Assembly: GCA_964461715.1 (NCBI GenBank)
Contig: CAYWVR010000005.1
Coordinates: forward strand, 3,717 to 67,716
Reading direction: 5' to 3'
DNA: 64,000 nt
Source of the DNA: an uncultured Anaerolineales bacterium
Lineage (GTDB): Bacteria; Planctomycetota; Phycisphaerae; FEN-1346
Part shown: in pieces, positions 1 through 6,000 of the stretch
How positions within the stretch are numbered: the stretch's first letter is position 1
Layout of the letters: each line of letters begins with the position of its first letter
Position numbers: made by a program

Positions 1-3000
1 CCAGTGGCCTGGGAGGCCGAGATCGGTCCCGGCTTCGCCGCTGTGGCCGTCGCCGGCGGCAAGGTCTACGCGATGGGCCGCGGCGAGAGCGACGACGTCC
101 TCTATTGCCTGAGCGAGGCCGACGGCACGGTCCTCTGGAAGCAGTCTTACCCCACGAAGGAGGGCAGCTACCCTGGCCCACGGGCCACGCCCACCGTCGA
201 CGGCGACCGCGTCTACACCTCCAGCCGCTACGCCGACCTCCACTGCTTTGACGCCGCAAGCGGCCAGATCAAGTGGTCCGTCGACGCCCGGGAGGCGTTC
301 GGCGTGAAGAAGGAGTCTCAGAACTGGGGCCTGGCGTCCTCGCCGCTCATCGTCGGGGACCTGGTCGTGTACGATTTCGGCATGATCCTGGCCCTCGACA
401 AGATGACCGGGAAGCTGAAGTGGAAGGTCGGGGATGATAAGCCCGGCTTCTCCTCCGCCCAGAACTTCCAGTTGGGCGGCAAGACCTATGTCACGGCCTT
501 TAGCGCCGCGAGCCTCGTGATCGCCGACGTGGCCACGGGGACGGAGATCGCAACGTTCCCATGGGAGACGAAGTACGACTGCAACACCGCCACACCCCTC
601 GTCGAGGGCGACACCCTGTTCATCTCCTCGGGCTACGGCCGGGGCTGCGCGGCCCTGAAGTTCGACGGAACGAGCCTCACGAAGCTCTGGGAGAACGACC
701 GGCTCAAGAGTCACTGCAACAATGCCGTGCTCTACCAGGGCCATCTCTACGGCTTCGACGGCCAGCAGGGCGGTCGCGGCGACCTCGTGTGCATGGAACT
801 GGCCACCGGCGAGATCCGTTGGTCCCAGCGGGCCGGCCGCATCGGGGCCCTCATGATCGCCGGCGGCACGATCATCGCCCAACTGGACCGCGGAGAGCTC
901 ATCACCGCCAAGGCCACGCCCGCCGGCTACACGGAGATCGCGCGGGCCGAGGTCCTTGACGGCCAGTGCTGGACGATGCCCGTCCTGGCGAACGGGCGGA
1001 TCTACGTCCGCAACAATAAGAACGACGCCGTCCTGAAGGCCCTGGACGTGCGGGGGGCCGAATGACCCAGCCGATGCGCATCCTCTATTGCCACTGCGCG
1101 TTTTTCGAGACGACGCCCGCCGACGTACGCGGGGCCGTCCTGGAGGGGATGGCGGCGGCAGGCCTCGAGTTCACGCCCGTGCGGGACCTGTGCGAGCTGG
1201 CCGCCAGGCGGGACCCGATCCTGGCGGAGATGGCCGCCGGGGAGGGCTCGCGGACGATCGTCGCCTGCCGCCCCCGGACTGTCCGGTGGCTCTTCGAGGC
1301 GGCCGGGGCGACGCTGGAGCCGTCCGCGGTCCGGTTTGTCGACCTTCGCGAATCGACCGCGGAGGAGGCCCTCGCGGTCCTCACCGAGGGAGCGGCCTGC
1401 GAGGAGGGCGGGTGCGGATGCGGGGCCAAGATCGTGCGGGCGGTCCTCGAGAATCTCGACGCGAACGCCTGGCGGCCCTGGTTCCCGGTCATCGACTATG
1501 ACCGGTGCGTCGGATGCGGCCAGTGCATGGATTTCTGCCTTTTCGGCGTCTACGAGCGGGATGACGAGGGCCGGGTCGTCGCGGCCCATCCCGAGAAGTG
1601 CAAGACGAACTGCCCCGCCTGCGCCCGCGTCTGCCCGGAGGCGGCCATCATCTTCCCGAAGTACCTCGACGGCCCCATCAGCGGCCTGCCCGTCACGGAG
1701 GCCGACACCGGCGACCCGGTGCGGGTGGACCTCGCCGGCCTGGCGAAAGGCGACGTCTACGAGAAGCTCCGGAAGCGCGACGGGGGCTCCGGAGGCCGGT
1801 TCTCGGGGACCTACGACGGTGCGCAGGCGGAAGCGGAGCGGGCCGAGTGCTCCTGCGTCTCGCGGATGATGGAGCGCCTCGGTGTGACGCCGGAGGTCCT
1901 CGCCGCCAGTGCCGCCGACGCCCGCGAGGCCCTCGCGGCTCCGTCGGAGACCCCGGGGGGCGGCTGTGCGTGCGACGAGGACGCGGGCTGCGACTGCGAC
2001 GGCACGGACGAGGAGCGGGCCGCCGGCGCGTGCGGGCCCCGGGGGTGCGACTGCGGCGGAACGGGCGAGGAGACGTAGGGCGGATGCTTCTTACGCTGGC
2101 CAAGCGGATGCTGTTCGAGACCGACCGGCGGCTCCTCTGGAAGTTCGCCTGGAACTTCGGTGTCCAGAGTCTCCGGGCCCACGCCCGGTTCAAGCGCGAT
2201 CTGCGCCGCGGGCGGACGTACCCGGCCTTCCTCTTCATCTCCATCACCAATGCCTGCAACCTGCGGTGCCAGGGGTGCTGGGTCTCGGTCGAGGCGCCGC
2301 AGACCTTCCTGGCCCCCGAGACGTTCGAACGAATTCTGCACGAGAGTCGCCGCCGCGGGAACCGCTTCTTCGGCATCCTGGGCGGGGAACCGCTCCTTCA
2401 TCCCGACCTCTGGACCGTCCTGAAGCGGTTCCCGGACTGCTATTTCCAGCTTTTCACGAACGGCACGCTCATCACCGACGAGACGGCCGAGACGATGCGG
2501 CGGCTCGGGAACGTGACCCCCTTGGTGAGCATCGAGGGCCTCGAAGAGGTCAGCGACGAGCGCCGCGGCGGCAAGGAGGTCTTCCGCCAGACGCTGGAAG
2601 GCCTGGAGCGATGTCGCCGGGCGGGGCTGGTCCTCGGTGTCGCCACGAGTATCTGCCGCTCGAACATCGACGACCTCGTCTCCGAGCGCTTCGTGCGGCA
2701 GGTTGTGGATCACGGGGCCCACTACCTGTGGTACTATATCTATCGTCCGGCGGGGCGGGACCCCCGGCCGGAGCTGGCCCTGAGCTCGGAGCAGGTGCTT
2801 CGCCTCCGGCGCTTCATCGTCGAGATGCGGGGGCGGGCCCCCTTGGCCATCATCGACGCCTACTGGGACGAGGCGGGGCGGGCCCTGTGTCCGGCGGCCT
2901 CCGGCATTGCGTGCCACATCAATCCCTGGAGCGACATCGAGCCGTGTCCGCCGGTCCAGTTCGCCGCCGAGAGTGTTCATACCAACGGCGACCTGTACCG

Positions 3001-6000
3001 GACAATCGGCCACTCGGCGTTCCTGGACCGTTTTCGCCGCACCGTGGCCGAGACGACGCCGGGCTGCATCCTGTTGGAGCGGCCCGACGTGCTGAGGCGG
3101 CTGATCGTGGAGGAGGGGGCTCGGGATTCGACGGGGCGCGGCACGGGGCTGGCCGAGTTGGAGGCCCGGGCCTGCTGCGCCAGCCATCACATGCCCGGCC
3201 ACGAGATTCCGGAGGCGCACTGGTTCTACCGCTTCGCGAAGCGGCACTGGTACTTCGGGTTCGGCGGGTACGCTTGAGCGGCAAGCACAAGGAGACGCGA
3301 TGAGCGATCCTGCGACCGGCTACGACTCGGGCGCTTGCTGCGGGCCCGGACGGCGTCCCCGTCGTCCGCCCCAGAAGGGCATCCCTCAGACACGGCCGGA
3401 GCGCGACCGCATCCGCGGCGCCGTCCGCGACCGCGTCCGCAGCCGACGGCTCGTGCCGCCGCTGTCATTCAACGAGCTCTTTGATCTCACCGAGGACGTC
3501 GCCGCGGCGGCCGAGTGCCCGGCCGACGTGCGGAAGTGGGTGGCGGTCCTCGCGAACAACGAGGCGTGGCAGGAGCGTTTGGCGGGCATCCCGTACGAGC
3601 GGCGGCTCCTTTTGCTGCCCCAGTGCCTTCGCGACCCCGAGCAGTGCCCCGGTGTGGTGGACGAGCTGGGCCTCGTGTGCCAAGGATGCGGGCGGTGCCT
3701 GATCGATACGTTCCGCCGGGAGGCCCTCCGCCTCGGCTACGCGGTCCTCGTCAGCGAAGGTACGGCCGTGGTCATGACGCTGATCCGCACGGGCCAGATC
3801 GAGGGTGTTGTGGGCGTCAGCTGCATGTCTTCGCTGGAGAAGGTCTTTCCGCTGATGGAGGCGGCGGCGGTGCCCGCGGTGGCTGTGCCGCTCCTCTATG
3901 ACGGATGCGCCGAGACGAGCGTGGACGCGGATTGGGTGCTGAGGGCCATCCGGCTCTCCTCCGACGCCGCCACCGCCCGCATGGACCTCGACGCCCTGCG
4001 GACCGAGGTGGAGGCGTGGTTCCGGGCCGACGTGCTCGCGGCGCTGATGGGCCCTGCCGACGATCCCACCAGCCGCATCGCCCGCGACTGGCTCCTCGTG
4101 GGCGGCAAGCGGTGGCGGCCATTCCTGGTGGCGGGCGTTTACCGGGCCCTGGCGGACGATGCCGAGGCCCCTCTCCCCCCGACCGTGGCCCGCATCGCCG
4201 TGGCCGTCGAGTGCTTCCACAAGGCCAGCCTCGTCCACGACGACATCGAGGACCAGGACGCCCTCCGCTACGGGGAGCAGACGCTGCACGAGCGGCACGG
4301 GGTGCCTATGGCCCTGAACGTGGGCGATTTCCTCATCGGCGAGGGATACCGCCTCATCGCCGAGGCCGACTTGGCGGACGCGCGGCGGGGCGAGATTCTG
4401 GCGGCGGCCGTGACGGGCCACCGCGCGCTTTGCGTCGGGCAGGGGGCCGAGCTGGCCTGGACCGCCGACCCGCAGCCCCTGGCCCCCGAGGCCGTCCTCG
4501 ACATCTTCCATAAGAAGACCGCCCCGGCCTTCGCCGTGGCCCTGCGGATGGGAGCCGTCTGCGCCGGGGCCGACGGTGCCGTCGCCGACGTCCTCGACCG
4601 CTATAGCGAGGCCCTCGGCGTGGCCTACCAGGTCCGCGACGACCTGGACGACTTCGTCCGAGCCGGGGCGGAGAGCGATGCGTGGGCCCTGCGGCCCTCG
4701 ATCGTCCTGGCCCTGGCGTATGAGCGGGCCGAGGGCGAGGCCCGCGACCTCCTGGACGCCCTCTGGCGGGGCAAGGCCGACCCGGCATCCGTCGCCGCGC
4801 GGCTCGGGGCCGTCCTGGAAGACCTCCAGGTCGAGCGTGCTGCCCGGACGCTTCTGGACCGAACGACCCGCGAGGCGATCCGGTCGCTCCAGCCGCTTGC
4901 CAGCCCCGACCTCAAGGGCCTCCTCCGCCGCGTTCTGACGAAGATCTTCGGGCCCATCGACGAAAGGGCATCGATCCGTGACCTTGAGGCTCGAGATGAT
5001 CCGGGCCGCGCAGTCGGCGCCGAGCCTGCTGCGTGACGCCGCCGGGCGGGTCGCCTCGTTCCTCCGGTCCCGCCGGGCCCCCGGGCGCGGGTTCACGGGG
5101 CGCGACGGCCGGCCCGACCTCTACTACACCGTCTTCGGGGCCGAGGGACTGATCATCCTCGGGGAACCCCTTGTGGACGACCTCCCCGCTTACCTGGCCG
5201 GTTTCGGCGACGGCGAGGGCCTGGATTTCGTCCACTTGGCATGCCTGGCCCGGGCGCGGGCGGACGCGGCCCCGGAGGGCTTCGACGAGGCGTCCCGCCG
5301 GGCCGTGGCCGATCGCTTGGCTGCCTACCGGAGTGGCGACGGCGGATTCAGCCACCAGTCGGAGGCCCCCCGTGGGACGGCCTACGGGTGCTTTCTGGGT
5401 GTCGGGGCTTACGAGGACCTGGGCGTGGACCTGCCGGACCCGGAGGGGCCGGTCCGCTGCCTGGCGGGCCTGGAAGCCCCGGGCGGCGGGTGGTCGAACG
5501 AGCCCGGCGGGCGGGCGGCCCTGACGCCCGCGACGGCTGCCGCGGTGACGTTGCTCGCGCACTTGGGTCGGCCCATGCCGGAAGGGGCCGCGGGGTGGCT
5601 CCTGGGCCAGACGGCCGAGACCGGGGGGTTCCGGGCCTCCCCGGACGTGCCCGTCGCGGACCTTCTCTCGACGGCCACGTCCCTCCACGCGCTGGTGGCA
5701 GCGGGGGCGGACCCGGGGCCCGTGCGCGAGGGGTGTCTGAGGCTGCTGGATACCCTCTGGAGCGAGGAAGAAGGGGCCTTCCGTGGCCACGCCTTCGACG
5801 CAGTCGTCGACTGCGAGTACACGTGGTACGGGCTCCTGGCGCTCGGGCACCTGGCCGCGTGACGGGGTCGGCGCTTGCCCGGGTTCGCGGCACAACCTAC
5901 GATGAAGAGATGAAGAGCGGGCATCCGGGCGAGGAGGACCCATGCATCTTGCCTTGCGGAGGCCGATCCTGGCGGCGTGCTTGATCGTGGTTGCGTCCGC

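Follow-up and report, generated by a model that had tools for sequence, protein, structure and literature searches.

A disordered cysteine-rich tail on a ferredoxin-family protein encoded next to a radical SAM gene, within a widespread cassette of putative isoprenoid enzymes

Background

When a cysteine-rich sequence is encoded immediately upstream of a radical S-adenosylmethionine (SAM) gene, is it a substrate of the radical SAM (rSAM) enzyme? The question is raised by one end of a 64,000 nt stretch of DNA from an uncultured Anaerolineales bacterium, placed within the Planctomycetota by GTDB (contig CAYWVR010000005.1, positions 3,717 to 67,716 of the forward strand; G+C content about 70%). 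The whole stretch was analyzed and is referred to as the window. Its open reading frame (ORF) 1062-2078, on the + strand, codes for a ferredoxin-family protein of 338 aa, here named FER, which ends with a tail rich in Cys, Asp and Gly; the ATG of an rSAM gene is located at 2084, 5 nt past the FER stop codon. A first-pass annotation had proposed that the tail may be a protein-borne substrate, similar to the core of a ribosomally synthesized and post-translationally modified peptide (RiPP), matured by the downstream enzyme. As far as can be judged from sequence comparisons, this proposal is largely refuted by the data reported here, and an arm for handling metals or thiols is a more likely role of the tail than that of an rSAM substrate. 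The corrective point is a general one: the proximity of a Cys-rich stretch to an rSAM gene does not suffice to identify a RiPP-like substrate.

The C-terminal tail of FER

The tail, with its seven Cys, and its close distance from the rSAM gene were both found as first described. It lies within the C-terminal ~40 residues of FER (...PGGGCACDEDAGCDCDGTDEERAAGACGPRGCDCGGTGEET, closed by the TAG codon at 2076-2078), where residues 299-333, encoded by nt 1956-2060, read GGGCACDEDAGCDCDGTDEERAAGACGPRGCDCGG and are followed by TGEET. The Cys residues (C302, C304, C310, C312, C324, C329, C331) follow the pattern CxC-x5-CxC-x11-C-x4-CxC, and hence form three CxC pairs, plus one lone Cys. Such a density, 7 Cys over 35 aa, was compared to the 1.5% Cys background calculated from 15 ORFs of the window, and corresponds to a binomial p~7e-7. 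The region looks translated, since its G+C content at third codon positions (0.94) is close to that of the FER core (0.92), and it is in frame with the rest of the gene. An origin of the tail from tandem repeats was also considered, and rejected, because no tandem repeat was found in the DNA of this region.

In the AlphaFold (AF2) model of FER, which has a mean pLDDT of 78, the tail (residues 297-338, nt 1950-2075, + strand) is disordered, with pLDDT values below 50, and is preceded by helices at residues 253-292.

When searched by itself (phmmer, E<=0.001), the tail produced zero matches among 1.84 billion representative proteins, a result which says no more than that a stand-alone homologue is not detectable. 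The comparison with Pfam and NCBIfam, at E<=10, revealed only a chance-level match to NCBIfam (E 7.4, 5 bits), and nothing meaningful was obtained for the tails of two homologues, searched against the same collections. No SCIFF, ranthipeptide or metallothionein model from either collection was matched by the FER tail; the resemblance to SCIFF and ranthipeptide cores, suggested at first sight, was therefore not upheld at the level of family models.

Distribution and evolution of the tail

More than 1184 homologues of FER were detected, about 300 aa in length and mainly contained in metagenome-assembled genomes of Planctomycetota and Verrucomicrobiota. The last 50 aa were scored in 181 of them, and a protein was defined as tail-rich when this segment contains at least 5 Cys. 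The resulting distribution is bimodal: 146 homologues have at most 4 Cys (none at all in 89 cases), while the remaining 35 (19%) are tail-rich, with 5-13 Cys. Rich tails are composed of 16% Cys, 15% Asp and 12% Gly. The CxC spacing accounts for 120 of the ~240 gaps between consecutive Cys, followed by CC, with 34 occurrences; about one rich tail in two has a CC within approximately its last four residues.

Mapping the rich-tail state on a neighbour-joining tree, built on the FER core, indicated at least 14 gain or loss events. Aligning the orthologues revealed that the spacing of the Cys residues is not conserved, and differs from one clade to another. The nearest relatives of FER, 52-54% identical, have no tail, and the tail of the window is a singleton on the tree. 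FER loci were collected by a genome scan, using one genome per species; 80 related loci were obtained, spanning Planctomycetota, Verrucomicrobiota, Kiritimatiellia, Lentisphaerota (Victivallales), Acidobacteriota, Omnitrophota, Nitrospirales and Gemmatimonadales. All eight tail-rich loci of this set belong to Planctomycetota (8/43, vs 0/29 elsewhere; p=0.018).

A different degree of conservation was observed where the tail is retained. In a Pirellulales-type clade of nine members, in which the FER core is 76% identical, identity reaches 92% in the Cys columns of the tail, and is 60% in the other tail columns. The tails of this clade differ by insertions and deletions of DC units, and share an invariant GxGCCC[ED] terminus. 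Since conservation is higher in the Cys columns than in the core, the tail is probably functional in the clades where it is kept. Taken over the whole family, the sequences describe it as an optional, fast-evolving and lineage-specific appendage on an iron-sulfur electron carrier.

The same data may be read in terms of a tail which has no specific function in this organism, and is a tolerated, fast-evolving and low-complexity extension of a C-terminus already disordered and acidic. Throughout the family, hypervariability is observed over the last 40-60 aa, with half of the homologues lacking Cys there, and the window tail is both a phylogenetic singleton and devoid of detectable homologues among the 1.84 billion representatives. 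We regard this explanation as unlikely, although it is the most probable of the alternatives. A Cys content of 20% is far above background, at the p value given above; the combination of CxC motifs and acidic residues recurs in many lineages, including those with a lower G+C content; and in the clade keeping the tail the Cys columns are conserved above the level of the core.

A conserved gene cassette

The genes surrounding FER turned out to be conserved to a larger extent than its tail. In the related loci the order is FER, rSAM, a fusion of DUF116 to a polyprenyl diphosphate synthase (PPS), and a protein folded as a single alpha/alpha toroid, usually followed by a cyclase. Downstream sequence of 7.5 kb or more was available past FER in 53 loci; of these, 52 contain the DUF116-PPS fusion, 50 the toroid and 48 the cyclase, a divergent class II enzyme resembling squalene-hopene cyclase (SHC); the same order was observed in three loci sampled starting from the rSAM side.

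In the window, the fusion protein (3300-5036, + strand, 578 aa) matches PF01976 and PF00348. Its DUF116 portion is Cys-rich, with the motif C-x6-C-x11-C-x2-C-x2-C, while the synthase portion features DDIED as the first Asp-rich motif, preceded by small residues. The toroid gene follows on the same strand (4996-5862, 288 aa). The cyclase of the relatives, about 640 aa long (for example at 14808-16784 of locus L001), matches both SQHop_cyclase_N and SQHop_cyclase_C and contains a DADDTA (DxDD) motif; the SHC-like protein scores 105-136 bits, for a model cut-off of 322.7.

The rSAM gene found next to FER in the window (2084-3277, + strand) codes for a protein of 397 aa, which we call type T1. PF04055 is its sole Pfam domain (75.5 bits, residues 52-183), and C58, C62 and C65, which form the CxxxCxxC motif, are invariant in 120 homologues. 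The T1 family includes more than 7000 scored proteins, 55-69% identical over their full length, and most of the top 120 homologues are approximately 397-399 aa long, irrespective of the tail. Each curated NCBIfam model for rSAM enzymes scores T1 below its cut-off, which makes this an uncharacterized family; the candidate assignments to HpnH, MftC, PqqE, NirJ and AhbC/D were all rejected, being far below the cut-off (44.1 bits against 225 for the HpnH model TIGR03470).

Either of two enzymes occupies the rSAM slot: T1, or a second type, T2, of about 520 aa and with a MiaB/B12-binding-like N-terminal region (as in L012:7676-9238). The two types were never observed in the same locus (L001-L083), and no T2 rSAM is located elsewhere in the 64 kb of the window. 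Their alternation suggests a non-homologous replacement for the same step.

The cassette marked by FER is very widespread, with thousands of homologues from several phyla, and appears to be undescribed in the literature searched on DUF116, on this combination of genes and on Cys-rich ferredoxin tails associated with rSAM enzymes. The sole lead was a 2025 preprint, in which a terpenoid cluster of Bipolaricaulota includes a DUF116 protein next to SHC, HpnH and a polyprenyl synthetase. In our opinion the cassette is a more interesting object than the tail. Its product could be an unrecognized bacterial terpenoid lipid, which would be of relevance for both biomarker geochemistry and rSAM enzymology.

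Similarities with hopanoid clusters, which combine SHC, HpnH and a polyprenyl synthase, are evident in the PPS and in the DxDDTA cyclase of the relatives, and may extend to a membrane-directed rSAM. The differences are also substantial: T1 falls below the HpnH model and the SHC-like protein below the cut-off of its own, the conserved neighbours in the FER loci were not seen to include a squalene synthase, and a dedicated ferredoxin, the DUF116 fusion and a single toroid are present in addition, while the window is also devoid of the cyclase.

A putative role for FER and its tail

The body of FER had been described as two-cluster ferredoxin-like, and two clusters are what was found. Residues 140-200 (nt 1479-1661, + strand) match Fer4 families and contain eight invariant Cys, arranged in two four-Cys motifs, C149-x2-C152-x2-C155-x3-C159 and C180-x3-C184-x2-C187-x3-C191-P; both motifs and fold are those of a bacterial-type 2x[4Fe-4S] ferredoxin.

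The explanation we prefer, and to which we would assign an even chance of being correct, is that FER may be dedicated to supplying electrons to an rSAM that modifies isoprenoids, and that it may carry an accessory thiolate-rich tail analogous to that of HgcB. FER would pass low-potential electrons to the [4Fe-4S] cluster of the rSAM and, possibly, also to the Cys-rich DUF116 domain. The cleavage of SAM would then start a radical reaction on an isoprenoid lipid, rather than on a peptide. A lipid is the presumed substrate because the enzyme is strongly conserved, the tail is optional and hypervariable, and the other members of the cassette all handle prenyl chains; the conservation of both identity and length observed for T1 would fit a substrate that is always the same small molecule. 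The basic N-terminal segment of T1, together with its aromatic C-terminus (WFYRFAKRHWYFGFGGYA), suggests work at the membrane. In the window, electrons might enter upstream of FER from the polyferredoxin, the NuoE/NuoF-like fusion and the GltD-like flavoprotein described below. The tail would work as a flexible, acidic, CxC-repeat thiolate arm, able to bind metal ions or a fragment of an Fe-S cluster, or as a thiol shuttle. Composition, modelled disorder and clade-level conservation of the Cys residues are the grounds for proposing that it binds metals or handles thiols, and an extra metal site, also contemplated in the first-pass annotation, is a plausible assignment and the best available guess.

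A flexible Cys arm attached to a redox protein is a known design, of which the FER tail may be regarded as a new version. The dicluster ferredoxin HgcB ends with a disordered segment, variable in length and number of Cys and needed for full activity, which has been proposed to bind a metal and shuttle it to the partner protein; the C-terminal Cys pair of MerA is another flexible arm of this kind (PMC7305189). FER, too, has a 2x[4Fe-4S] domain followed by a disordered and variable Cys tail, a likeness of design and not of membership: it scores 29.4 bits against the HgcB model NF040864, whose cut-off is 99, and is therefore not a member of that family. With 338 aa and an extra N-terminal domain, FER is much larger than HgcB (~95 aa), and its tail holds 7 Cys in acidic CxC repeats, with as many as 14 in homologues, against no more than 4 in HgcB. 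HgcB also adjoins the corrinoid protein HgcA, while FER adjoins an rSAM and isoprenoid enzymes. The acidic CxC-repeat tails seem to have arisen repeatedly on one ferredoxin family and to be selectively maintained within clades, which would extend the idea of a flexible arm derived from HgcB and MerA.

Metallothioneins provide a second term of comparison. The tails contain approximately 16-20% Cys, are dominated by CxC, disordered, and subject to insertions and deletions of repeat units, so that both composition and spacing are compatible with those of metallothioneins. The differences are the strongly acidic character (15% Asp), the location on an Fe-S protein and the lack of a match to the family.

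Several observations weigh against the explanation we prefer. Classical metallothioneins do not typically have such acidic surroundings, and the tail matches no metal-binding family in Pfam or NCBIfam. The donation of electrons from FER to the rSAM is suggested by gene adjacency only. Among 5.8 billion proteins there is no relative of FER between 54% and 100% identity; because of this gap, and of the tail being a singleton, selection on the tail of the window itself is not assessable. The terpenoid lipid is a candidate product only. Finally, the window itself has no SHC-like gene: the toroid is separated from the next gene by an 80-nt spacer (5862-5942), no match for an SHC-like gene was found across the whole 64 kb, and the cyclase-less order was confirmed in two independent assemblies.

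The tail might instead be a redox-active dithiol/disulfide relay, comparable to the flexible Cys-Cys or Cys-Sec C-terminus of large thioredoxin reductases, or a sacrificial buffer for oxidants. It is flexible and sits on a protein, FER, which is itself a redox protein; vicinal CC and CxC pairs are present in homologues, some of which terminate with, for instance, GCCG, GCCD or GCCCE. A relay, however, would need fewer Cys than the seven to fourteen found, and no thiol-dependent partner, such as a thioredoxin-fold protein or a peroxiredoxin, was recognized among the conserved neighbours. We consider this explanation improbable, with the caveat that a relay and a metal-binding arm cannot be told apart by sequence alone.

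The tail as a proposed substrate of the rSAM enzyme

According to the RiPP-like reading, the tail would be a protein-borne core, in which the rSAM cross-links Cys residues by thioethers, in the manner of sactipeptides and ranthipeptides, thereby maturing the ferredoxin. A number of features make the idea reasonable at first sight. The rSAM gene starts 5 nt beyond the tail; the T1 core weakly resembles peptide maturases (SkfB, PqqE, MftC and SuiB); and, as in SCIFF and ranthipeptide precursors, many Cys are concentrated in ~40 residues by an rSAM gene. The enzyme was indeed confirmed to be an rSAM, by the PF04055 match and the CxxxCxxC motif. Its description as SPASM-like was not: by Pfam scan, and by inspection of the 120 homologues, neither a match to PF13186 nor a CxxCx5CxxxC motif was found. 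The C-terminal Cys cluster noticed initially is probably the vicinal CC of the window protein (ARACCAS), which is not conserved among the homologues.

Six further Cys are invariant in the T1 homologues, in addition to those of the CxxxCxxC motif. C119, C177 and C191 are in the core, and C269, C288 and C328 are the only conserved ones in the C-terminal part; together they are candidate twitch-like Cys, and the C-terminal three could hold an auxiliary cluster. A RiPP recognition element (RRE; PqqD-like) was not detected in T1 by Pfam, and the N-terminus is made up of a basic, amphipathic segment of 50 aa.

The comparison of loci speaks against this reading. The tail is absent in 81% of the orthologues, including the nearest ones, and its presence is independent of the rSAM type. 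A tail-rich FER was observed in 1/25 loci with T1 and was commoner beside T2 (5/35); it also occurred in 2/12 loci without an adjacent rSAM. The closest relatives of the window retain the enzyme and not the tail: in L001, a T1-type rSAM 69% identical to that of the window is found next to a FER without tail. Core and maturase co-occur obligatorily in SCIFF and ranthipeptide systems, where the precursor is a stand-alone peptide of ~45 aa; here the tail is fused to a protein of ~300 aa, matches no family, and does not co-vary with the rSAM type, and the rSAM lacks RRE and SPASM. Stand-alone small Cys-rich ORFs were also searched for. None was found in the window or in the 80 related loci, where the search returned only Arg/Ser/Pro-rich, out-of-frame artefacts, and no acidic Cys-rich ORF. 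Considering also that the conserved neighbours are isoprenoid enzymes, a substrate role of the tail appears very improbable.

The toroid protein and a possible protein prenylation

The AF2 model of the toroid protein has a pLDDT of 94.5 and an alpha/alpha toroid fold. The best structural matches, detected by Foldseek with TM values of 0.70-0.74, are the beta subunits of RabGGTase and GGTase-III (about 290-330 aa), which are single alpha/alpha toroids as well; a profile search against them gave an E value of 6.5e-10. In the Foldseek comparison, the scores of small class II cyclases come close to those of the prenyltransferases.

The Zn site was then compared, by using the register of an HMMER alignment, extended by eye by two residues. 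The ligands, which we take to be D238, C240 and H290 in the rat RabGGTase beta subunit (PDB entry 1DCE), correspond in the toroid to the invariant D222, the invariant L224 and an invariant Tyr, respectively. Two of the three positions are thus substituted in all of the 26 aligned members, and the DxxHT repeat reads DxxYT (Y275, Y44). A conserved family of ORFs resembling the alpha subunit was not found in the 80 loci, where the search was confined to the loci and did not cover whole genomes, and none is contained in the cassette.

The enzymes most similar to the toroid prenylate C-terminal CC or CXC motifs, rich tails are dominated by CxC and CC, with about half of them ending with CC, and a prenyl diphosphate synthase, as the DUF116 fusion, is encoded next to the toroid; on these grounds, PPS and toroid could be imagined to S-prenylate the tail at CxC or CC, anchoring FER to the membrane beside a lipid-modifying rSAM. 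This is the least probable of the explanations considered, in view of a toroid present in 50 of 53 cassettes against a tail in ~19% of the FERs, of a Zn site where Asp is the sole ligand kept, with Leu for Cys and Tyr for His, of the lack of a conserved alpha-subunit-like family in the 80 loci and of a Pfam match to CaaX proteases or isoprenylcysteine methyltransferases among the ~27 larger ORFs scanned in the window, of the 7 residues which separate the last tail Cys of the window from the C-terminus, and of class II cyclases almost equalling prenyltransferases in the toroid scores. In its boldest form, just as improbable, some Planctomycetota would carry out an endogenous protein S-prenylation: PPS and a toroid with a Zn-independent or differently liganded site would lipidate the CxC or CC cysteines of the tail, and thereby tether the electron donor to the membrane at which the rSAM and the cyclase are active.

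Other regions of FER and genomic context

The N-terminal domain of FER (residues 1-110, nt 1062-1391, + strand) is flavodoxin-like, and is modelled by AlphaFold as a beta-alpha-beta structure with pLDDT above 90. Its four invariant Cys (C10, C12, C44, C69) are possibly an extra site for a metal or a cluster. In two loci this four-Cys domain is encoded by a separate gene of 115 aa (L081:5523-5870 and L082:6807-7151), located upstream of a ferredoxin-family gene of ~285 aa, and preceded by genes for a GcvH-like protein and for CobW, a COG0523 metallochaperone-type GTPase.

The variable linker between the N-terminal and the ferredoxin domains contains, in the window protein, a Cys-bearing insertion (nt 1398-1421, + strand; ACEEGGCGC, with C113, C118 and C120), recognized in the alignment. 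Similar Cys occur in the linker of some homologues, 0.91 per protein in tail-rich members vs 0.49; a coupling between linker and tail Cys was not accepted, as the correlation is weak (p=0.065).

A PQQ/BamB-like beta-propeller gene, cut by the start of the window (4-1065, + strand), precedes FER. Members of this family are often found just before FER in related loci; they occur near it in 43 loci, and the protein of L084 is 403 aa long. In the window, four such genes (4-1065, 5942-7141, 12505-14439 and 17718-19478) are interspersed among those of the cassette and the adjoining ones.

Three redox genes are grouped at 15978-23401. One product resembles a membrane polyferredoxin (Fer4_5), another is a NuoE/NuoF-like fusion which carries a ferredoxin domain at its C-terminus, and the third is GltD-like (Fer2_4/Fer4_20/FAD); the latter two are encoded at 19204-23401. 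The NuoEF-like family was found near the cassette in 13 loci, and homologues of the redox module are located upstream of it in about 10-13 other loci. This group may be an NAD(P)H-linked module for the input of electrons to the cassette.

Further downstream, at 39021-52182, an exosortase (EpsH) locus includes genes for a polysaccharide export protein, DUF3485, a TPR protein of 1480 aa and AAA_31; it appears to be an ordinary locus of its kind, unrelated to the tail.

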